A stretch of DNA of 60,294 bases. Source: Oscillospiraceae bacterium (GTDB taxonomy: Bacteria > Bacillota > Clostridia > Oscillospirales > UBA929). The stretch covers positions 1 to 60,294 of the forward strand of contig JAVBPM010000023.1 of assembly GCA_031549605.1 (NCBI GenBank), in the 5' to 3' direction. Below are positions 4,831 through 58,122 of this stretch, piece after piece. The position numbers and the translations under genes were made by a program. The notes beneath the pieces were generated by a model. It was not told where the DNA came from, ran no database searches, and saw only the letters and a list, made by a program, of their open reading frames with translations. How positions within the stretch are numbered: position 1 is the first letter of the stretch; every line of letters begins with the position of its first letter.

Positions 4831-5081
4831 CTGCGTGTCAAAAAACTTGTTTTCTGGCACGCAGACAGACTGACAAAGAAGTGCGCAAACAAAAAAACAC
4901 TGTCCGTCGGCGCACGATGGTACGCTAGGGCAGCGTTTCTGTAGCAAGTAAAACCATTGCGGCGCAGCGACTTTGTCGATGCGCCGCAAATCGTCTGTCG
5001 AGAATCAAGACATAGCTTTGCGTCGCCGTATGCTCTTTTTTCTGACACTGGTTTTACGGTGCGCGCTTTTTTGACAGTCTG
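4831..5081. mobile_element. 251-bp MITE-like element, family A copy 1
   Basis: Similar to 11979-12229 and 21934-22184; terminal IR TGTCAAAAAA/TTTTTTGACA; flanked by near-identical hairpins at 4807-4830 and 5082-5103. Confidence 0.85.
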
Positions 5082-5109
5082 AGGGCGTCCAAACGGGCGC
5101 CGTGCAGTA

Positions 5110-21933: not shown

Positions 21934-22184
21934 CAGCGTGTTAAAAAACTTGTTTTTTGGCACGCTGCCAGACTGACAAAGAGGTGCGCAGGCAAAGAAA
22001 CGCTGTCCGTCGGCGTACGATGGTACGCTAGGACAGCGTTTCTGCAGCAAGTATAACCAATTGTGGCGCAGCGACCTTGTCGATGCGCCACAAACCATTA
22101 GAGGCAAATCAAAACGTAGCCCTGCGTCGTCATTTCTCTTTTTTCTGACACTGGTTTTACGGTGCGCGCTTTTTTGACAGTCTG
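21934..22184. mobile_element. 251-bp MITE-like element, family A copy 3
   Basis: CAG...CTG ends; perfect 19-bp flanking direct repeat AGACAGGCATGGCCTGTCT at 21915-21933 and 22185-22203. Confidence 0.9.
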
Positions 22185-22204
22185 AGACAGGCATGGCCTG
22201 TCTT

Positions 22205-30155: not shown

Positions 30156-30352
30156 TCCTCTCGTGGCTTAAGACACGATAATTTAGGTGAAGTCACGCAA
30201 AGCATAACACATTGAACAGATGAATAGGTGATTTGCCACAATTGTGTGGCATGAGTGGCGATGTGTAAAACACTTATTGCATGAGGTGGCAGCGTGCGGA
30301 CGTCACAAGGCAACGCACCAAAACGCACAGTCCCGAGCAAGGTAGAAACCTA

Positions 30353-30556
30353 GTCCGACTGTAGGCGTAGCCGAAAGTCGGACAGCGCAGCTGCAATAAG
30401 GCACAGCAAAAAACTAAAGCGGCTTTTGGCGTGAGTACCGTGTACTCGCGTCAAAAACGCCATTTTTTGCCATCCGAGAGGTGAGGGGGTCTCGGGGCGA
30501 CTCCCCGAGTCTGCTTCTTTGGTTACTTTCTTACAGACAAAGAAAGTAACACCCCC
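30353..30556. other. Multi-hairpin non-coding structured element
   Basis: Stems GTCCGACT/AGTCGGAC, TTTTGGCGTGAGTAC/GTACTCGCGTCAAAA, CTCGGGG/CCCCGAG, GTTACTTTCTT/AAGAAAGTAAC, GGGGGT/ACCCCC. Confidence 0.6.
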
Positions 30557-30643
30557 GCAGGGCGCGCCAAGCTGCTTGGGGTAGCACAGGCGACGAGATT
30601 CAGCGCGTCGGCATCGGCGCTCAGCTTGATTACAGGTGGACGT

Positions 30644-30855
30644 GCCACACGGCGGTCACACGCGCGGCTGGCCGCTGTATAAATTACAATTGTTTGACAT
30701 TTTTATTTTGTGCTGTCTATCTTGCGCTATCTATTTTGGCCGGTTTGATGTATAATTAAACTATCGAGGACTTGCCATACATACTTTGGGGGGGAGACAA
30801 TGAAAGCCAACATCAAACGTCTGGGCGCGCTGGCGCTTTGCCTTTCGCTGCTGCT
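30644..30855 (+). repeat. Duplicated upstream region plus signal-peptide start, copy 1
   Basis: Aligns with 31254-31452; first 56 coding nt identical. Confidence 0.9.
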
Positions 30856-37780: not shown

Positions 37781-38407
37781 ATGGGCGTATATGTTGTAGA
37801 CCACCCGCTGGTGCAGCACAAGCTGGCCATACTGCGCGATGTCGAAACGGGTCCCAAGGAGTTCCGCGCGCTGGTGCGCGAGATTGCCATGCTGGTCACC
37901 TACGAGGCGACACGCGAGCTGCCGCTGATTGACGTCAAGGTGCAGACGCCGCTGGAGGTGGCCGACTGCAAGAAAATCGAAGGCAAAAAGATGGCCGTCG
38001 TGCCCATTCTAAGAGCCGGACTCGGCATGATGGACGGCGTGTTGGACATGGTGCCTGCCGCCAAGGTGGGTCACATCGGCCTCTACCGCGACCCCGACAC
38101 CCACGAGCCGGTCGAGTACTACTTCAAGGTGCCCTCCGACATTGAGGAGCGCATTGTCTTTGTCGTCGACCCCATGCTGGCCACCGGCGGCTCGGCCGTC
38201 GATGCCGTGCAGATGATCAAGGACAAGGGCTGCACGCAAATCAAGCTGATGGTCATGGTGGCCGCGCCCGAGGGCATTGCCGCCATGCAAAAAGCCCACC
38301 CCGACGTCGATATTTTCGCCGCCGCGATTGACCGGCAGTTGAATGATCATTGCTATATTTTGCCCGGCCTGGGCGATGCAGGGGATAGGATTTTTGGGAC
38401 GAAATAA
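37781..38407 (+). CDS. upp: Uracil phosphoribosyltransferase
   Basis: [36 protein letters not shown]. Confidence 0.97.
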
Positions 38408-38591
38408 ATGGTGCAGCGGCGCCGCAACACTTACAGATGCACAAAAGCCGCTTGAGAAAACGCAAACAAACACGGAATAGACGTCAGCGCGCCGGCAGGT
38501 GCGCAGACGACTGTTTCGCGTTTGCGAAGTCGCTTTCTCAAGCGGCTTTTGCAGCAGCCGTTAGTGTTGCGGCGCCGCTGCCCGATAGCAC
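38407..38591 (+). repeat. ~185-nt rod-like hairpin element, family B copy 1
   Basis: AATGG...TTACAGATGC...CGGAATAG...CTGTTTCG...GAAGTC...GCAGCCGTTAG...CCGATAGCAC; 18-bp perfect outer stem 38413-38430/38564-38581. Confidence 0.85.
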
Positions 38592-38681
38592 GCGTTATAA
38601 ACCCGCGCGGACGCGCGACGCAACCACCAATATCAACCCAAACGCAGATGCCGCACCCCCACAACAAAGGAGGCGCCCATC

Positions 38682-39920
38682 ATGAAAAAACTCGCCCTGA
38701 CCCTCGCCGCGCTGCTACTGCTAACCGCCTGCGGCGGCAAGCCAACGCCCACCGTGCAGCCAACCACGCCGCCGCCCGCACCCACGACCACTGTCACGGC
38801 GACCGGCACTGCCGCGCCCGAAACGGTTGAACCGACGCCTGAGCCGACGGCCACCCAGCCGCAGCCAACCCCCACGCCGACAGAGGAGACAACCCCCGAC
38901 AACCTTGCGCCTCCACTATCACTCGACGATCAATACATCCAGACGTTGATGGCGATGAGCGACGAGGAATTGGAGGCTGAAAGCCAGCGACTGCTAGAGG
39001 ACGGGTATAGCAATGCGGATGACAAGCTGAACTATGTCCAAAATAGGGGTTGGGAAATGCCAGGCGCTAAATATGCAGTTGATTGGGAGAGACTAAGAGG
39101 TTGTCAGTGGCTTGAACTCTACACAGAACATCACATGGATTTAGATGGTGACGGCAAAGAGGAATCCATCTACGTGTCTACCTATACGGTCTTCGATACC
39201 GATAAGGATGGCAGCGACGAGAGCTGGCAAAAAGTCTATCTGACAATCAACGGTAAGAGCGAGCACATCATTAGCTTGAAGAATTCTACGTACTGCCACA
39301 GCCCGTTTGCCGTGGTCGACATCAACACAAGCGACGGGCAGAAAGAACTTGTGTTTGAGGTTGATTATGTCCACGGCAGAGACTCGAAGCCACATCTTCA
39401 TTTTTTCTGCTATCGCAACGGCGCTATTCAGTATATGAACACCGGCTGCAATCAGAAACGCTTGGGCAGTGCAAAAGGCGCAGCCAACTGGATCAACGGA
39501 TTCTTTGTAAACTCGAACCTACCCGGCGACAGCACGTTGGGCTTGACAGAGCGGCTGGGTACAGCAATAGACGCGCATCGATACACCATCAACTACAAAC
39601 TGACAAAAGACCATATGCTCTACGACGACGCCGATCTGTACGACATGGTGTATTATGGTGAGGGCGACGGCGGGATGGACTATACCTTTGCCGCGCCGGT
39701 CATTGCCTACTACGACCGCGACCTCAACGGCAAAACAACGACCATAAACGCGACGTCGCAGTGTAATTTTACCCGCACCGATGGCAAAGAACTGCTTGAG
39801 GTAACGCTCAAAAGCGGCAAAAAGTTCTGGCTGAATATCAATCGGCTGCTTACGCCGGACGGGCGCGAGCTGTCGTTGGAAACACTGTTTGACGCTACGT
39901 TTGGCGCTGGCAACACGTAA
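38682..39920 (+). CDS. Tandem-array lipoprotein 1
   Basis: MKKLALTLAALLLLTAC, Pro/Thr linker, DLDGDGKEE. Confidence 0.88.
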   Translation: MKKLALTLAALLLLTACGGKPTPTVQPTTPPPAPTTTVTATGTAAPETVEPTPEPTATQPQPTPTPTEETTPDNLAPPLSLDDQYIQTLMAMSDEELEAESQRLLEDGYSNADDKLNYVQNRGWEMPGAKYAVDWERLRGCQWLELYTEHHMDLDGDGKEESIYVSTYTVFDTDKDGSDESWQKVYLTINGKSEHIISLKNSTYCHSPFAVVDINTSDGQKELVFEVDYVHGRDSKPHLHFFCYRNGAIQYMNTGCNQKRLGSAKGAANWINGFFVNSNLPGDSTLGLTERLGTAIDAHRYTINYKLTKDHMLYDDADLYDMVYYGEGDGGMDYTFAAPVIAYYDRDLNGKTTTINATSQCNFTRTDGKELLEVTLKSGKKFWLNINRLLTPDGRELSLETLFDATFGAGNT

Positions 39921-39948
39921 TCTGCGTACAACAAAGGAGGCGCCCATC

Positions 39949-41376
39949 ATGAAAAAACTCGCCCTGACCCTCGCCGCGCTGCTACTGCTAACCGCCTGCG
40001 GCAACACGCCAACGCCCACCGTGCAGCCAACCACGCCGCCGCCCGCACCCACGACCACACCCACACCGACACAGCCCAGCCCGACGGCCACCGCCGCACC
40101 CGACGACTACGCCGCCAAGCTGGCCCAGCTGCTGGCGCTGACCGCCGCCTTTGACCCCGAAAGCGTCGTCGGCGGACTGGCGGCCAACACTGCGTTCAAC
40201 AACGTCAAGGCCGCTGTCGCCGCGCTGCTGGCAGAGCCGACGGGCGTGGTTATGCTGCCGGCCGACGTCGCGCGTGTCGACAAGCAAAGCGGCTTTGCCG
40301 TTACCTGCGCTGAAACCGTGAGTGTCGACGGCACCAACTACCGGCTGGTGACCTTGACAAACACGCATACCCCGCGCATCGATGGCGCTGTTGACAGCCT
40401 GTTTGTGCAGTATTGGAACGCTGACACGTTTGGGGTTGTGCCGCTGGTTGACAGTCACACATCGTCGGGCGAGGTGACCTCACTGGCCGATGCGCGCATC
40501 ATCGCCGCACAGAGCCTAATCTCGGTCATAATAAAGCGCAACAGCGATACGTTTGCATACATAGACAGCTACCAGCTCATTGCCTTTTCGCTCGAGGGCG
40601 GCGACATTGAGAACTGCCCGCCGTCCGTGCCCGACGACGTCGACAACGGTCATTGGCAGGTTTCGGCGCAGACATATGAATTTGTCAACCCCGACCGCAC
40701 CGCGCACGGCCTGCTGGTTTACGAGCTGGGCGACGAAGACAACGCCGAGCCGACCCGCCTCACAGTCAACGGCGAGCAGCTTACCATCGCCAACACCCAA
40801 ACGCCCTCCAGCACAATCACACTGACGCTGCAAGACGGTGCGTGGACGGTGTCCGATAACACCCAGCCGCTGACCGGCATGGCGGCCATCAAGGCGCAGG
40901 TCTTTGCCGCCGACGACTTTATGCTGGAGATGAGCCTGTCCCACAAGTCAGACGGGACAGTGGTCGGTGAGTCGATTGACGCTGATACGGGTAGCGTCGA
41001 TAAGCTGTATCAGTTTGGGTCCGATTTTGGCGACACCTTCAGTGAGACATACGCCGCGGCTTCTGACTTTTATGCCAATGAAAAGGCGTTTGAAAAACAG
41101 CTGCGCATCAGTGGCTTGATACACGTCGGCGACTATATTGGTGAAATTCGCGCCGATGGCGAGTTGCGCTACTTTGTAGACAAAGGCGTTTCCACCTTCA
41201 CGCCCGTGTCGACCGATGGCAACATCCAGACCGTCGACATTCTGTTCACCAGCGACGGCGGAGAAACAGAAGTGGTCACCTACCAATTCGACATCTCCGA
41301 CCCCAGCCAGCCCAAGATAGTTGATTTTGAGGACATCTACAACTTCGGCGAGATTACCGTCAAAGAAGTCGGCTGA
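39949..41376 (+). CDS. Tandem-array lipoprotein 2 (shared leader, unrelated body)
   Basis: Same RBS, signal and linker as gene 1; body lacks the motifs shared by the other four. Confidence 0.88.
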   Translation: MKKLALTLAALLLLTACGNTPTPTVQPTTPPPAPTTTPTPTQPSPTATAAPDDYAAKLAQLLALTAAFDPESVVGGLAANTAFNNVKAAVAALLAEPTGVVMLPADVARVDKQSGFAVTCAETVSVDGTNYRLVTLTNTHTPRIDGAVDSLFVQYWNADTFGVVPLVDSHTSSGEVTSLADARIIAAQSLISVIIKRNSDTFAYIDSYQLIAFSLEGGDIENCPPSVPDDVDNGHWQVSAQTYEFVNPDRTAHGLLVYELGDEDNAEPTRLTVNGEQLTIANTQTPSSTITLTLQDGAWTVSDNTQPLTGMAAIKAQVFAADDFMLEMSLSHKSDGTVVGESIDADTGSVDKLYQFGSDFGDTFSETYAAASDFYANEKAFEKQLRISGLIHVGDYIGEIRADGELRYFVDKGVSTFTPVSTDGNIQTVDILFTSDGGETEVVTYQFDISDPSQPKIVDFEDIYNFGEITVKEVG

Positions 41377-41403
41377 TAACGCCATAGTAGGAGAGTGAGC
41401 GCC

Positions 41404-42654
41404 ATGAACAAGCTAGCCCTAACCCTCGCCGCGCTGCTACTGCTAACCGCCTGCGGCGGCAATCCAACGCCCACCGTGCAACCCACCACGCAGCAGCCGA
41501 CGGCCACGGTCACGCCGAACGGCACCGACGCGCCTGTCACGGACGAGCCGTCGCCCAGCCCAACGGCCGAGCCGACGCCCACGGCCGCCCCCGATAATCT
41601 GGCGCCGCCGCCGACCGAGGACGATGTGTACCTGCAGGCGGTGATGGCCATGAGCGATGACGAGCGGCTGGCGCTGGACCGCGAGCTGGAAGTCAATGCC
41701 ACGGACGACCCGCACGCGGGCGCGAAACAAGGCTGGCTGAATCGCCTTGAAAGCAACAGGCACCGGTTCTCTGACGACGAAGGCGGCGCGTTGCCGAACC
41801 TGTACGAGACGTTGTCCGAGCGCTTTGTGCTGCTGTACGTTGGTCAGACCTACCGCTACGACCTTGACAACGACGGTGCTGAAGACACCTTCCATGTGGC
41901 GACACACACCGACTTTGGCGCATCGCAGGAGATCTACATCACCATTAACGGCACGTGCGAGAAAATCTTGGGCATCAAGGCGCCGCGCCTGTGCTCCGAT
42001 GTCTATCTGCTGGTGGACATTGACAAGTCGGACGGCTACAAGGAGCTGGTGTTTGAGACGCAGGACGATACGCGGTCTGGACCCTATTCGAGCGCGGTGT
42101 CGCACGTCTTTTGCTACCGCAATGGGGCCATGCAGTACATGAACAGCGGCTGCAACGACAAGCGCTCGACCGACGATGACGCGCCGGGGTTCCGAGACGG
42201 CGAGGTAAAGCCTGACTGGATTAAGTGCGCCTTGACCGGCCTGCACATCGACGGCAGCGGCGCCTTGCGTGTGGAAAAGCCGTTGAACGACAATATTGAG
42301 AGGCTTAACTACTACGTCGATTACCAACTGACCAAAAGCCATATGCTGGCAGGTCAGCCCGACCAGCAGCTGCTTGACATCGCCTATGACGCCGACTACT
42401 GGTACACGTTTGAAATCCCGTTTACCGCCTATTACGAGCGCGACACCGGCAGTAAGACAACCACCATCAACGCCACCACGAAGTGCCATTTGACGCGCAC
42501 CGACAACCTGGACTGGATTGAGGTGACGCTGAAAAGCGGCAAGAAATTCTGGCTCTACATAGACGATGTCAATGGCTTGTATGGCGGCAATCCAGGCATA
42601 CAGGACTTTATCGTGCTGTTCGGGGTGAACTTAAGCTACGCCGGATTGTGCTAG
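41404..42654 (+). CDS. Tandem-array lipoprotein 3
   Basis: MNKLALTLAALLLLTAC, PDNLAPP, DLDNDG, EVTLKSGKKFWL. Confidence 0.88.
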   Translation: MNKLALTLAALLLLTACGGNPTPTVQPTTQQPTATVTPNGTDAPVTDEPSPSPTAEPTPTAAPDNLAPPPTEDDVYLQAVMAMSDDERLALDRELEVNATDDPHAGAKQGWLNRLESNRHRFSDDEGGALPNLYETLSERFVLLYVGQTYRYDLDNDGAEDTFHVATHTDFGASQEIYITINGTCEKILGIKAPRLCSDVYLLVDIDKSDGYKELVFETQDDTRSGPYSSAVSHVFCYRNGAMQYMNSGCNDKRSTDDDAPGFRDGEVKPDWIKCALTGLHIDGSGALRVEKPLNDNIERLNYYVDYQLTKSHMLAGQPDQQLLDIAYDADYWYTFEIPFTAYYERDTGSKTTTINATTKCHLTRTDNLDWIEVTLKSGKKFWLYIDDVNGLYGGNPGIQDFIVLFGVNLSYAGLC

Positions 42655-42679
42655 AGAAACCGCTAAGGAGGCGCACATC

Positions 42680-43876
42680 ATGAAAAAACTCGCCCTAACC
42701 CTCGCCGCACTGCTACTGCTAACCGCCTGCGGCAACGCGCCAACGCCCACCACGCAGCGACCGACGGCCTCAGCAACGGTTACGCCGACCGGCACTGCCA
42801 CGAGCGAAACGGTTGAACCGACGCCTGAGCCGACGGCCACCCAGCCGCAGCCAACGCCCACGCCCGACCCCGACAATCTCGCGCCGCCGCCGACCGACGA
42901 CGACTTGTACCTGCAAGCGGTGGCGGCTATGACAGGGGACGAGTGGGATGCCGAGTGCCGGCGGTTGGAGGACGAGGGCTACAACGAGGAAAATCTGCTG
43001 TTCTGCGCGGTAAACTACAAGGTGTGGGACGCCGACTATAGTCCGCGGGATGCCGAGCAGATGTCCGACTACAGGCCGCTGCACCTCAACCGAACCTACC
43101 ACGTCGATCTGGATGGCGACGGCGTTGACGAGACCGTTCACGCCGCCACGCGCTATTGCTTCGACGGCGGCAAGGAGTACAACACGCAGGGGTGGCAGAA
43201 GATATACCTGACCATCAACGGCAAGTGCGAGCAGGTGCTTAAAACCACGGGCTGCGCCTTTAGTCTCAACACCTACAACGTCGTTGACCTCGACACCTCC
43301 GACGCGTTGAAAGAGCTGGTGTTTGAAACAGGTGACTTTTCGCCCTACGACTCCATCAACCGGCTGCACTTTTTCTCCTACGACGGCGGACAGCTCAACT
43401 ACGTCAACGCCGACTGCAACAAAAGCATCGCCGAAAAGTTTGACTACATTAACAAGGATTGGATCGAGGGATCTCTGCCGCAAATCGACATTCCGGGCAA
43501 CGGAACGCTGTCCATGGCACTGGAGCTGTACAGAGTGGCCGCCAATACCTATCAGGTCAACTACAAACTGAACGACAAGCACCGTTTTGTCGACGAGGGC
43601 GGGCTGTACACCATCACGCGCGAGCTGTATGCGCCCCACGAGTGCCTGCAGCCGCTGGTGGCCTATACCCAGCGCGACCTTAGCAGCAAGACGACAACCA
43701 TCACCCCCACGACTACCTTTAACATGCTGCGCTCCGACCTGGACAAGTGGATTGAGCTTCAACTGCCGAGCGGCAACAAGTTTTGGCTGTACATAGGTGA
43801 CGGCGGCGCACGGCAGGCCAGTGATGACTGGGCTGAGCTGTTTACCGGCACAGAAGGCTGGCCGGGCAACTGGTAG
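42680..43876 (+). CDS. Tandem-array lipoprotein 4
   Basis: Same leader, PDNLAPP, DLDGDG, KELVFE, SGNKFWL. Confidence 0.88.
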   Translation: MKKLALTLAALLLLTACGNAPTPTTQRPTASATVTPTGTATSETVEPTPEPTATQPQPTPTPDPDNLAPPPTDDDLYLQAVAAMTGDEWDAECRRLEDEGYNEENLLFCAVNYKVWDADYSPRDAEQMSDYRPLHLNRTYHVDLDGDGVDETVHAATRYCFDGGKEYNTQGWQKIYLTINGKCEQVLKTTGCAFSLNTYNVVDLDTSDALKELVFETGDFSPYDSINRLHFFSYDGGQLNYVNADCNKSIAEKFDYINKDWIEGSLPQIDIPGNGTLSMALELYRVAANTYQVNYKLNDKHRFVDEGGLYTITRELYAPHECLQPLVAYTQRDLSSKTTTITPTTTFNMLRSDLDKWIELQLPSGNKFWLYIGDGGARQASDDWAELFTGTEGWPGNW

Positions 43877-43907
43877 CACCGACCCAGCAATAAAGGAGGC
43901 GCCCATC

Positions 43908-45122
43908 ATGAAAAAACTAGCCCTGACCCTCGCCGCGCTGCTATTGCTGACCGCGTGCGGCGGCAATCCAACGCCCACCGTGCAGCCCACCACGCAGCCG
44001 CCGACGGCCTCGGCCACGGTTACGCCGACCGGCACTGCCACGACCGAAACGGTTGAACCGTCGCCTGAGCCGACGGCTACCCAGTCGCAGCCAACTGCCA
44101 CACCCAGCCCCGACAATCTCGCGCCGCCGCCGACCGAGGACGACTTGTACCTGCAGCGCCTGTGGGCAATGAGCCAGTCGGAGCTGGAGGCCGAGTTGAA
44201 GGTTGTTGACGAGGACGGCAGCACGTCATTTGGAACGCGTGAGGACTATTTGTACTCACTGATTACCAGCTTGCTCTGGCGCAAATATGAAGGCGACAAT
44301 GAGACGCAGTACGGCCGCATCGAGAACAATAACGAGCTGTTGTTGATGGGCGAGACCTATCAGTACGACCTTGACGGCGACGGCAAAGAAGACACGTTTC
44401 ATGTCGCCACGCACACCACGTTCGGCGATGCGCAGGATATCTATATCACCGTGAACGGCAAGTGCGAGCCGATTATCAAAACAAGTGACGGCCGCGTCTG
44501 CTATGAAGCCTACGCGTTGGTGGACATTGACAACAGCGACAACAACAAGGAACTGGTGTTTCAAACCGCGCAGTTGTCGTATGACGAAGAAGATGTGCTG
44601 CACTTTTTCTGTTACCGAAACGGCGCCATGCAGTACATGAACACCGGCTGCAACCAAAAACGGCTGGGGAGCGCAACCGGCTCAGACAACTGGATTCATG
44701 GATATTTATCCAGCTTAATAATCACCGGCGACGGCACGGCGGACGGGACTGAGCAGATGAGTGCCGGCAATAACGTGCGCGACTTCATCATCCATTACAA
44801 GCTGACGAAAAACCACATGCTCTACGACGACGCCGATTTGTACGACATTTTGCCCCGTGGACTGGAAGACAACGGGATGGAATATACCTTTGCTAAGCCG
44901 GTCATTGCCTATTACGACCGCAATCTCAGCGGCAAAACAACGACCATCCTCGCGACGTCGCAGTGCAAATTCTCCCGCACCGATGACGAAGACTGGATCG
45001 AGGTGACGCTGAAAAGCGGCAAAAAGTTCTGGCTGAATCTTTATGAGCTGGTGACGCCGGACGGCGAGGAGCTGTCGCTGCCAAGCTTGTTTGACGTCGA
45101 ATTCTGGGCGGGCAGCATGTAA
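43908..45122 (+). CDS. Tandem-array lipoprotein 5
   Basis: Same leader, PDNLAPP, DLDGDGKED, EVTLKSGKKFWLN. Confidence 0.88.
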   Translation: MKKLALTLAALLLLTACGGNPTPTVQPTTQPPTASATVTPTGTATTETVEPSPEPTATQSQPTATPSPDNLAPPPTEDDLYLQRLWAMSQSELEAELKVVDEDGSTSFGTREDYLYSLITSLLWRKYEGDNETQYGRIENNNELLLMGETYQYDLDGDGKEDTFHVATHTTFGDAQDIYITVNGKCEPIIKTSDGRVCYEAYALVDIDNSDNNKELVFQTAQLSYDEEDVLHFFCYRNGAMQYMNTGCNQKRLGSATGSDNWIHGYLSSLIITGDGTADGTEQMSAGNNVRDFIIHYKLTKNHMLYDDADLYDILPRGLEDNGMEYTFAKPVIAYYDRNLSGKTTTILATSQCKFSRTDDEDWIEVTLKSGKKFWLNLYELVTPDGEELSLPSLFDVEFWAGSM

Positions 45123-46058: not shown

Positions 46059-46784
46059 ATGACGACCGCCGTTGCGCCGCATGACAACGCGGCGCTGCTC
46101 CGACGCGCCCGCGCGGGCGACAAGGCCGCCTGCGAGCAGGTCGTGTTGCAAAACAACGGGCTGATTTGGTCGGTTGTGCGCCGTTTTTTCGGCCGCGGCA
46201 TCGAGGCCGACGACCTCTACCAGCTGGGCTGCGTCGGCTTTCTCAAGGCCGTGGCCGGCTTTGACGACGAGTACGGCACGCAGTTTTCCACCTACGCCGT
46301 GCCCAAAATCAGCGGGGAGATACGCCGCTTTTTGCGCGACGACGGACCGGTCAAGGTCAGCCGCAGTCTGAAAGAGCAGGCGTACGCCGTGCGGCGCGCC
46401 CGCGAGGCGCTGCTCGGCCGGCTGGGCTGCGAGCCAACCGTCAGCCAGCTGGCGGCCGAGTGCGGGCTAACCATTGAGGAGGTCGCCGCCGCCGAGCTGG
46501 CCGCCGAGCCAACACAGTCGCTGCAGCAGGGCAGTGGTCAAAACGAGGACTTCACGCTGGAGCAAGCGCTGGGCGACAGCGGCATAGAGGGTCAGCTGGT
46601 CGAACGGCTGGCGCTGAAGCAGGCGCTGGCCAGTCTACCCGAGCGCGAAAAACAGGTCATCGACCTGCGCTACTTCCACGGCCTGACCCAACAAAAAATA
46701 GCCGACCTGCTGCAAGTGTCACAGGTGCAGGTCAGCCGCATTGAGCGGAAGGGGTTGGAGGCGTTGAGAGCGCAAATGGTCTGA
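46059..46784 (+). CDS. sigF: Sporulation sigma factor F
   Basis: LIWSVVRRF, FSTYAVPKISGEIRRFLRDDGPVKVSRSLKE, SQVQVSRIE; follows spoIIAB. Confidence 0.93.
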   Translation: MTTAVAPHDNAALLRRARAGDKAACEQVVLQNNGLIWSVVRRFFGRGIEADDLYQLGCVGFLKAVAGFDDEYGTQFSTYAVPKISGEIRRFLRDDGPVKVSRSLKEQAYAVRRAREALLGRLGCEPTVSQLAAECGLTIEEVAAAELAAEPTQSLQQGSGQNEDFTLEQALGDSGIEGQLVERLALKQALASLPEREKQVIDLRYFHGLTQQKIADLLQVSQVQVSRIERKGLEALRAQMV

Positions 46785-46959
46785 GCCGCGCGCCACCTTA
46801 CGGATGCGCGAAAGGCGCTTGAGAAAATGCAAACAAACACGGAATAGCCGTCAGCGCACCCGCTGGTGTGCAGACGGCTGTTTCGTGTTTGTGAAGTCAC
46901 TTTACTCAAGCGCCTTTCGCAGCAGCCGTTAGGTGGCGCGCGGCGACAGCCGATAGCAC
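46775..46959 (+). repeat. ~185-nt rod-like hairpin element, family B copy 2
   Basis: Same motifs as copy 1; stems GCCGCGCGCCACC/GGTGGCGCGCGGC and GCGAAAGGCGCTTGAG/CTCAAGCGCCTTTCGC. Confidence 0.85.
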
Positions 46960-55644: not shown

Positions 55645-56859
55645 ATGCCATTCATCAACGGCGGCGTGACCGCTGCCAAGGGCTTTACCGCCGCCGGTAT
55701 CCATGCCGGTATCCGCAAGAATAAGAGCAAGCTCGACCTCGCGCTGCTGGTGGCCGACGCGACCGCCGTCTGCGCCGCGACCTACACCACCAACGTCGTC
55801 AAGGCCGACCCGCTGCTGGTAACGCAGCAGCATCTGGCCAACGGCCAAGCGCGCGCGGTGGTCATTAACAGCGGCAACGCCAACGCCTGCGCCATCGACG
55901 GCTACGCCAACGCGCAGCTGACGGCGCGCGAGGCCGCCGCCGTGCTGGGCGTAGACCCGACCGACGTTTTGGTCGCCAGCACCGGCGTCATTGGCCAGCG
56001 GCTACCCGTCGAAACCATTGTCGCGGCGCTGCCGACGCTGAGCCAAAAGCTGTCGGTCGACGGCGCACACGACGCCGCGCTGGCGATTATGACCACCGAC
56101 ACCACGTGTAAAGAATGCGCCGTGGCGCTGGAGCTTTCCGGCGTGCAAGTGACCATCGGCGGCATGGCCAAGGGCAGCGGCATGATTCACCCCAACATGG
56201 GCACGATGCTGGCCTTTGTCACCACCGACTGCGCCATCGAGCGGCCGTTGCTGCAACAGGCGCTGCGCGGTGTCACCGACAAAACCTTCAACCGCGTTAG
56301 CGTCGACGGCGACACCTCGACCAACGACATGTGCATTGTCATGGCGTCGGGCGCGGCGCACAACGCGCTTATTTCCGAGAAAAACGACGACTACGCCGCC
56401 TTTGTACAGGCGCTGACCGCCGTTTGCCGCACGCTGGCGCGCGCCATGGCCGCCGACGGCGAGGGCGCGTCCAAGCTGCTGACCTGCAATGTGTCCAACG
56501 CGCCCGACGAGGCTTCTGCCGTGGCGCTGGCCAAGAGCGTCATCAGCTCTTCGCTGGTCAAGACGGCCATGTTTGGCCGCGACGCCAACTGGGGCCGCGT
56601 CATCTGCGCGCTGGGCTATTCAGGCGTGGCGTTTGACCCAAACACCGTCGACATCGCCTTTGCCGCCGATGGTCAGACGCTGGCCGTCTGCCGGCAGGGC
56701 AGGGGTCTTGACTTTGACGAGGACGCCGCGCTGGCGCTGCTGAGCCACCACGAGGTCGATATAAACGTCGATTTACACGCCGGAAACGCCAGCGCCGACG
56801 CGTACGGCTGTGATTTGACGTATGGCTACGTTAAAATTAACGGCGATTATAGAACCTAA
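55645..56859 (+). CDS. argJ: Bifunctional ornithine acetyltransferase
   Basis: NSGNANAC, KGSGMIHPNMGTML, DGDTSTND, DGEGASK, INGDYRT. Confidence 0.97.
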   Translation: MPFINGGVTAAKGFTAAGIHAGIRKNKSKLDLALLVADATAVCAATYTTNVVKADPLLVTQQHLANGQARAVVINSGNANACAIDGYANAQLTAREAAAVLGVDPTDVLVASTGVIGQRLPVETIVAALPTLSQKLSVDGAHDAALAIMTTDTTCKECAVALELSGVQVTIGGMAKGSGMIHPNMGTMLAFVTTDCAIERPLLQQALRGVTDKTFNRVSVDGDTSTNDMCIVMASGAAHNALISEKNDDYAAFVQALTAVCRTLARAMAADGEGASKLLTCNVSNAPDEASAVALAKSVISSSLVKTAMFGRDANWGRVICALGYSGVAFDPNTVDIAFAADGQTLAVCRQGRGLDFDEDAALALLSHHEVDINVDLHAGNASADAYGCDLTYGYVKINGDYRT

Positions 56860-57044
56860 TGGCTTGAGCCGATTGACCCGTTACGGATGCGGCAACGCGC
56901 CGCGACCATCAACGCAAACAACTCGGAATAGACGCAGGCCACGCTCGCAAGCGAGGACGGCGGCTGTTTTGAGTTATGAAGTCGTTGTGGGCACGGTGTG
57001 ATTGCGGCTGCCGTTAGGGGTCAGGCGGCGAGTGCCGATAGCAC
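56858..57044 (+). repeat. ~187-nt rod-like hairpin element, family B copy 3
   Basis: AATGG...TTACGGATGC...CGGAATAG...CTGTTTTG...GAAGTC...GCCGTTAG...CCGATAGCAC. Confidence 0.85.
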
Positions 57045-57075: not shown

Positions 57076-57939
57076 ATGATTCACATCGACAACCTCAACC
57101 GCGCCGAGGTGCTGAGCGAGGCGCTGCCCTACATTCAGGAGTACAACAAGCAGATCGTCGTCATCAAGTACGGCGGTGCCGCCATGCAAAGCGCCGAGCT
57201 GAAACAGGCCGTTATCAGCGACATCGTGCTGCTGAGCTTGGTCGGCATCAAGGTCGTGCTGGTGCACGGCGGCGGGCCGGAAATCAACGAGCTGCTGGGC
57301 AAAATGGGCAAGCAGGCCAAGTTTGTCAACGGTCTGCGCTACACCGACGAGGAGACGATGGACGTCGTGCAGATGGTGCTGTGCGGCAAAATCAGCAAGG
57401 AGCTGGTGGCCAAAATCGGCCAGACGGGCGGTCGCGCGCTCAGCCTGTCGGGCATAGACGGCAACCTGTTTACCGCCCGTCGCATGACCGAGGAGGGCGA
57501 CCTCGGGCTGGTGGGCGACATTGTCGGCGTCGACCCGCAGCCGGTGCTCGACGCGCTGGACAACGGCTATATCCCCGTCATCTCAACCGTGGCGGCGGGA
57601 CAGGACGCCAACGTCAGCTACAACATCAACGCCGACACCGCCGCGTCGCGGCTGGCCATCGCGCTCAAGGCCAAGAAGCTGATGCTGCTGACCGACGTGC
57701 GCGGCATACTGCGCGACGCCAGGGACGACAGCACGCTGCTGCCCGTCGTGCCGCTGCACGAGGTGCCGCGTCTGGTCAAGGAAAAGGTCATCACCGGCGG
57801 CATGAAGCCCAAGGTCGACTGCTGCGTACAAGCCGTCCGCGAGGGCGTAACCCGCACCCACATCCTAGACGGCCGCATCCCGCATGCCATTCTCATTGAG
57901 CTGCTGAGTAATACTGGGGTCGGTACCATGATTTTGTAA
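57076..57939 (+). CDS. argB: Acetylglutamate kinase
   Basis: IKYGG, VHGGGPEI, GLRYTD, NINAD, GGMKPK. Confidence 0.97.
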   Translation: MIHIDNLNRAEVLSEALPYIQEYNKQIVVIKYGGAAMQSAELKQAVISDIVLLSLVGIKVVLVHGGGPEINELLGKMGKQAKFVNGLRYTDEETMDVVQMVLCGKISKELVAKIGQTGGRALSLSGIDGNLFTARRMTEEGDLGLVGDIVGVDPQPVLDALDNGYIPVISTVAAGQDANVSYNINADTAASRLAIALKAKKLMLLTDVRGILRDARDDSTLLPVVPLHEVPRLVKEKVITGGMKPKVDCCVQAVREGVTRTHILDGRIPHAILIELLSNTGVGTMIL

Positions 57940-58122
57940 TGGCTTGAGCCGGTTGAACCGTTACGGATGCGGCAACGCGCCGCGACCATCAACGCAAGTA
58001 ACTCGGAATAGGCGGTGGGCACACCGCGTGTGGCCATCGACTGTTTCGAGTTATGAAGTCGTTGTGGGCGCGGTGTGCTTGCCAGCAGCCGTTAGGGTTC
58101 AGGCGGCGAGTGCCGATCCCCG
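57938..58122 (+). repeat. ~185-nt rod-like hairpin element, family B copy 4
   Basis: Close to copy 3 (shared GTTACGGATGCGGCAACGCGCCGCGACCATCAACGCAA), different apical stem. Confidence 0.85.

Follow-up and report, generated by a model that had tools for sequence, protein, structure and literature searches.

A cytosine-poor halo at both ends of a hairpin repeat behind genes of a spore-forming Oscillospiraceae bacterium

Genes and hairpin repeats in the window

The window, by which we mean the whole analysed stretch of 60,294 nt, is one contig (C79) of a 1.95-Mb assembly (58.5% GC, 88 contigs, completeness 96.9%) of a spore-forming bacterium; the public runs that contain its DNA are invertebrate gut metagenomes. 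Gene calling with our own hexamer model gave 1,680 genes. Copies of a hairpin repeat, here called family B, lie on the forward strand at the stop codons of several genes of the window, among them upp, argJ and argB, which like argD scored above the NCBIfam cut-offs, and a sigma factor gene for which the best family was SigF-like with a score below the curated cut-off. All features below are on the forward strand unless stated otherwise.

The gene upp (uracil phosphoribosyltransferase, 37781..38407) is followed by a copy identified by repeat search and fold (38408..38586), which starts directly 3' of the stop codon, and the region 38330-38680 has a fold z-score of -7.8. The end of upp (38372..38407) is poor in C (3 C in 35 nt; 1/10 synonymous sites, compared with 110/175 in element-free relatives), and on the mirror side the top strand is C-rich and G-poor (38587..38626). 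The latter flank overlaps a decayed copy of a second module, named M (38615..38653; nhmmer E=0.0015 within the window), which deviates from its consensus mostly towards A/C. argJ (55645..56859) and argB (57076..57939) are separated by a copy that overlaps the argJ stop codon (56859..57039), and a further copy overlaps the argB stop codon in the argB-argD gap (57939..58117), followed by a C-rich 3' flank ahead of the argD ribosome-binding site (58118..58157). The end of argB (57903..57938) is C-poor (2/10 vs 90/165 in relatives without the element), and the argJ tail (56823..56858) has C at 5/10 sites, as in element-free relatives (97/202). The SigF-like sporulation sigma factor gene (46059..46784) shares its last two codons and stop with the first 9 nt of its copy (46776..46954), and its tail (46740..46775; 4 C in 35 nt) is a weak example, because the tails of its relatives are C-poor too (35/108). 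These ortholog comparisons were limited to element-free relatives with a body C3 of at least 0.45. The first-pass annotation had cited all four genes as examples of a codon switch ahead of the element: upp and argB are good ones, sigF and argJ weak ones. One upp gene without family B (L095, in genome G021) has an almost identical C-poor tail (2/10), and one argJ gene without it (L103, in G001) also ends C-poor; the argJ-argB gap of the latter genome might hold a decayed, unrelated element.

Other features of the window include a second repeat, family A (copy 1 at 4838..5082), which has 53 genomic hits but lacks a halo and serves as a control outside the halo system. Family A copies of the window (4838-5082, 11986-12230 and 21942-22185) lie between duplicated terminator hairpins, and on contig C33 a family A copy has inserted immediately after a copy of family B. 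A mosaic of the related modules F, D and M was found by repeat search at 30346..30646 (no strand assigned); elsewhere in the genome (C15, 6256-7212; C46, 95-447; C59, 14230-14792; C83, 16165-16888) such mosaics combine the modules C, D, F and M with family B. Between the upp copy and the sigma factor gene (38682-45122) five lipoprotein-like paralogs stand in tandem, with a common leader and a Pro/Thr-rich start, the first of which has a lower coding score and a more AT-rich body.

Iterated nhmmer searches gave 35 family B hits in the genome, 30 of them full-length, with a mean pairwise identity of 0.61. The element is one long hairpin of about 175 nt that starts with RTGG and ends with CCRAT (RTGG was present at 23/23 5' junctions, a count that is partly built into the definition of the edge). 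The top strand forms the more stable DNA fold in 30/30 copies, a T-G pair is kept in 29/30, and 45 of the 53 consensus pairs change on both sides (0/500 shuffles, relatedness not controlled), so the fold is conserved. Array starts lie at a same-strand gene in 20 of the 23 cases (19 with a stop codon at the edge and one gene reading in), and copies are oriented with the adjoining gene instead of in a single replichore direction. Tandem copies are found as well as mosaics with the four other modules, and several arrays stop at contig breaks. Family B is a hairpin repeat at gene stops that is specific to its lineage and likely mobile. It had no Rfam 15 match at gathering score within the window, and outside this genome it was matched neither by BLAST in 40 relatives, nor by a covariance model in 29 family members, nor by an HMM in 384 kb of a same-genus genome (about 2.1 Mb in total, ~70% DNA identity, 48.7% GC). 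A pattern that catches 16 copies of the genome gave four unrelated, probably chance hits in GTDB and none in metagenome contigs, in which the best ArgJ relatives reached 55-60% identity. Among the near-clonal contigs listed, no empty site of a close strain was seen. In the 88-contig assembly no Y1/RAYT, RT, TnpB or DUF559 gene was found, and PF01797 and NF047646 had no match; a lone GIY-YIG hit was rejected as a candidate mobiliser, since it sits in a 617-aa frame that is probably UvrC.

Size, reach and base signature of the halo

Synonymous C was counted at four-fold and NNY third positions of the last 12 codons and compared with gene ends from a control pool of 1,237 genes (20,000 resamples, three control pools). 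A C56 gene of doubtful frame was removed from the analyses after the first count, and truA on C15, which reads into a family B element, was included only in the later ones. In the 19 genes that end at family B, C was used at 36/157 sites (0.23), compared with 0.47±0.05 in controls, and none of the 20,000 resamples was as low in any of the three pools. The 14 genes outside the window gave the same result on their own (28/114, again 0/20,000), and the 5' flanks of all 23 first-in-array copies contain 1-9 C per 35 nt (control mean 9.7). Further out C and G each make up about 0.30 of the bases; over the 30 nt ahead of the element's 5' end C drops to 0.11-0.15 and G climbs to 0.34-0.43, and the 3' side is mirrored. 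By distance from the edge, synonymous C amounts to 24/114 up to 30 nt, 20/50 between 31 and 40 nt and 0.52-0.65 beyond, and it is already normal at codons 13-15 (21/39). The strand symmetry that had been asserted for these flanks was borne out: in six genes that converge on the 3' end of family B, 13/54 synonymous sites carry C on the strand of the gene itself (a small sample), and 20 downstream flanks show a (C-G)/(C+G) of +0.19, compared with about 0 in controls (p=3e-5). There is therefore a real halo that is peculiar to family B, has mirror symmetry and extends over about 35-40 nt, with C at about half its usual level, and the C-poor strand is the one that runs into the element, ahead of each of its two ends.

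The comparison with gene ends lacking the element, which the first-pass annotation had proposed, came out in favour of the halo. Family A gave 161/312 and 195/333 synonymous C, compared with 36/149 for family B, and the strongest-hairpin decile of 679 isolated gene ends was equally flat (333/594), so that a general hairpin effect was rejected. The family C module had 22/45 C, with a halo in one of five genes. Among the 1,237 element-free gene ends 46 are as C-poor as family B tails; some of these are followed by words like family B termini and are possibly ghosts of lost copies.

The first-pass annotation had also been right in that the quoted codons and A/C tracts are present in the sequence (the tracts start at 38621 and 58135), and the loss of C ahead of family B exceeds chance; the reach of the switch is, however, 10-12 codons instead of the 10-25 claimed. 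The A/C-rich DNA that it had noted downstream exists, but the tract behind upp is mostly the decayed module M, and the A/C-rich words ahead of a ribosome-binding site, read as part of the halo, recur in an element-free paralog. The weaker A-enrichment suggested ahead of family A is absent from the family as a whole (A3 0.145 vs 0.142), and what had been described as a flip between G+T and A+C is a loss of C from which G profits most.

The latter result follows from a log-linear model fitted on 240 halo codons, in which C-avoidance gave the lowest AIC (488), followed by keto (494), G-only (527), T-only (559), AT drift (569) and the null model (577). Free weights relative to C were 1.05 for A, 1.80 for G and 1.30 for T, with bootstrap intervals that exclude zero; the signature is thus a loss of C to any base, neither a simple C>T change nor AT drift. 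A toy equilibrium in which all exits from C are tripled gave A.13, C.19, G.56 and T.13 (observed.08/.17/.61/.13), and a boost of C>T alone fitted worse. No dinucleotide was singled out (ratios for C before A/C/G/T 0.41/0.23/0.51/0.65), and there was no depletion specific to CT. The odds ratios of C at codon positions 1, 2 and 3 are 0.39, 0.72 and 0.30. First positions of Arg and Leu codons shift (AGR 9/18, TTR 11/19), and those outside Leu/Arg are depleted too (8/173 vs 874/6772, ratio 0.33), which means that the protein ends change. Second positions hold their C (36/208, twice the 16.7 that a uniform tilt would leave, p=1e-5), as expected for a change filtered by selection, and this favours a change after insertion.

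Origin of the halo

Three prophage-type genes next to family B have element-free paralogs on contig C31, which suggests that the element moved after those prophage elements had arrived; by our own reading of tail, terminase and amidase genes, the family B copies on C47 and C59 lie inside prophage remnants. The comparison has no power: 10/22 synonymous codons differ in the tails and 160/497 in the bodies (p=0.24), C is found at 7/29 sites in the family B tails and 11/28 in the paralog tails (p=0.26; the direction fits), and sites with C only in the paralog or only in the family B copy stand at 7:3 in tails and 79:53 in bodies. Near-clonal contigs, among the best 40 of 464 matches listed (many of them from other organisms, hence no power), had no variant in the covered halos. 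The strength of the halo is not linked to the identity of the nearest sibling (rho -0.05, n=20), and one copy with a 98%-identical sibling carries a full halo; if conversion keeps refreshing the copies, this carries no weight either way, and otherwise it would favour targeting. One of the C31 paralogs (that of C59 116-931) has as its final two codons and stop the 9 nt with which the element begins; judged from this match, the 5' word of family B may be target-derived or used as microhomology.

Orthologs of upp and argB from relatives without the element are not short of C, and we infer that the halo arose after insertion. As the tentative first choice, at somewhat below an even chance, we regard C-directed mutagenesis of DNA that is briefly single-stranded or nicked at the ends of family B. 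A protein that recognises the fold (an HUH/Y1-type nuclease as known for REPs, lost from the genome or unassembled, or else a host enzyme) would open or nick a short patch at each end, and the exposed C would be deaminated or made abasic and then replaced; the general G/C preference of the genome would let G accumulate, and selection on the protein would spare mainly second codon positions. Besides the orthologs, the polarity speaks for mutagenesis at the element, since on either side it is the strand 5' of the element that loses C, a pattern that single-stranded 3'-ended flanks would give. Against it stand the paralog comparison, in which a raised substitution rate did not appear, the missing mobiliser gene, recognition that is presumably confined to one strand while the halo affects both, the C-poor upp tail of the element-free relative, the missing link to sibling identity, and a plain deamination that would predict more T than observed. 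The first-pass annotation had proposed recurrent nicking or breakage at the hairpin; a DNA-level, element-specific and strand-polar process fits its proposal, but nothing in the data demonstrates nicking, breakage or a raised substitution rate, and the co-conversion of flanks that it offered instead is not supported, because the 5' flanks of different copies are unrelated and each has its own reading frame.

An ordinary relaxation of codon bias at gene ends, seen to a small degree in control ends (C3 0.47, gene bodies 0.54) and in line with argJ and sigF tails that resemble those of relatives, is refuted for family B as a whole and scarcely credible as its cause: the resamples in all three pools exclude it, G rises instead of falling, and AT drift fits far worse than C-avoidance. 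Selection at the RNA level, i.e., transcripts that avoid C for folding, termination or processing as they enter the hairpin, would agree with the predominance of same-strand genes at array starts, with contigs from RNA libraries that bridge argJ, the element and argB and enter another copy (these give neither transcript level nor ends), with observed tails whose pairing with the element is weaker than that of recoded ones in 13/17 cases, and with the action of E. coli REPs as terminators or stabilisers in the accessible part of a preprint (bioRxiv 10.64898/2026.03.23.713779). It nevertheless seems improbable to us. The halo is also present in three 5' flanks without a gene reading in (13 C in 105 nt, p=0.004 with position-matched controls) and is thus independent of a coding transcript, other hairpins lack it, and the 3' C-skew is also seen ahead of same-strand genes (n=6, p=0.005; module remnants contribute). 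Flanks do not pair with each other (p=0.73) or with their own arm (p=0.61-0.95), so that an extended stem between the flanks was discarded, and ensemble pairing of flank and element is unchanged (4.8 vs 4.25). The Rho RNA-binding domain PF07497 was not found in the five genomes searched (the source genome G000, G001, G003, G011 and G076), and the RNA upstream is C-poor, not C-rich, for which reasons a Rho-dependent terminator zone was rejected as well. Halos occur on both strands within a few kb (contigs C15 and C50), which argues against a leading/lagging effect.

There is a similarly small chance that family B inserts where the flanks are already C-poor upstream and G-poor downstream. The halo does not depend on the apparent age of the copy, the 46 equally C-poor element-free gene ends offer such sites, and the C31 paralog ends in the starting word of the element; the skew would, however, have to exist on both sides over 35-40 nt, second codon positions would not be spared, and the upp and argB orthologs are C-rich. 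Cleavage of the hairpin with a resulting double-strand break that is resected and repaired in an error-prone way, as the first-pass annotation had it, is very improbable: the observed polarity matches 3'-ended tails on both sides and is independent of the strand, but family A and strong terminators, palindromic too, show nothing, no excess divergence appeared, and resection usually covers far more than 35-40 nt. More weight is due to a purge of cleavage sites, even if we hold it unlikely. Here a nuclease bound to the element would cut C-containing sites near the ends, and alleles without C would be selected or accumulate as an absorbing state, with the general mutation rate unraised. Such a purge would remove C in favour of A, G and T alike and at first positions even outside Leu/Arg, as observed, and it needs no excess divergence, matching the paralog comparison. 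The accessible parts of PMC3333891 and PMC8266576 describe TnpA-REP enzymes that, guided by REPs, cut ssDNA at C|T and in one case also at C|A. However, no dinucleotide stands out, no enzyme was found in the assembly, and the known enzymes cut the same strand 5' and 3' of the REP over >400 nt in the accessible part of PMC3333891, which predicts long halos on the same strand, while the top strand 3' of family B is C-rich. Mutation and such a purge cannot be separated with these data.

If C-directed mutagenesis at the element is nevertheless the cause, a non-autonomous repeat would act as a self-marking local mutator, with C-specific, strand-polar mutagenesis over 35-40 nt at each end that rewrites host codons and C-terminal residues, a wider claim that we consider possible but rather doubtful. 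Were it true, such repeats would steer synonymous and amino-acid evolution at conserved gene ends (upp, argB), estimates of codon usage and selection would be biased there, and composition alone would show which strand opens and how far. For the processing of REP-type repeats in vivo, a sharp strand-polar footprint is a direct, testable read-out of the strand that is exposed or cut and of the distance; in the case of family B two easy explanations are removed, because no Rho was found and the genome contains its own negative control.

Comparison with known systems

In the openly accessible literature that we searched, we came across no compositional halo beside REP-type repeats, and 122 crude GTAG-REP-like sites in relatives, false positives included, showed no halo. 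In relatives, the reading frames of RAYT-type genes (L036-L039, L043-L046, L049 and L320) themselves contain GTAG REP hairpins, in many cases with G/T-rich sequence directly on the 5' side of the GTAG. Module D recurs in 3 of 300 further genomes from the order, G076 having 42 copies, with weak matches in Burkholderiales megaplasmids and others, and in two relatives it is interleaved with GTAG REPs, in one of them together with RAYT-type ORFs.

Family B resembles REPs, BIMEs and REPINs in being a multi-copy intergenic hairpin at the 3' ends of genes that often provides the stop codon, in its tandem and mosaic arrays, and in a strand-specific fold with conserved bulges and wobbles. In the accessible parts of the respective papers, REP termini often supply stop codons (PMC3733652), REPINs form tandem and mosaic clusters (PMC3116915), and RAYT groups are present in Clostridia (PMC5581495). 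The conserved fold, more stable on the top strand, is also reminiscent of substrates of HUH enzymes acting on ssDNA, as far as these are described in the accessible parts of PMC3333891 and PMC8266576, where the hairpin bound by TnpA-REP is bulged and strand-specific and where cleavage, at C|T or C|A, takes place on either side of it over >400 nt. This known cleavage affects the same strand on both sides over a long range, whereas the halo of family B is mirrored and short; likewise, REPs measure 20-40 nt, compared with the single 175-nt hairpin of family B. Furthermore, the ends of family B are RTGG and CCRAT, without a GTAG or CGTC terminal tetranucleotide, and no RAYT was found in the 96.9%-complete assembly. 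We therefore call family B REP/BIME-like and do not count it among the REP/REPIN-RAYT systems.

Non-autonomous derivatives of IS200/IS605, whose mechanism is summarised in PMC3333891, share with family B a strand-specific hairpin, the absence of terminal inverted repeats with target duplication and a short 5' junction word; they differ in that no TnpA or TnpB was found in the assembly and the orientation of family B follows the adjoining gene. Family A, presumably an IS1182-type MITE judging from its ends, is likewise a multi-copy, hairpin-rich repeat at gene ends of the same genome, without a halo. Damage to cytosine in single strands is known from lagging-strand or non-template C>T skew and from kataegis-like clusters. 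The strand-polar loss of C next to family B is similar, but it is anchored to one repeat family, mirror-symmetric and restricted to 35-40 nt, with a larger gain of G than of T.
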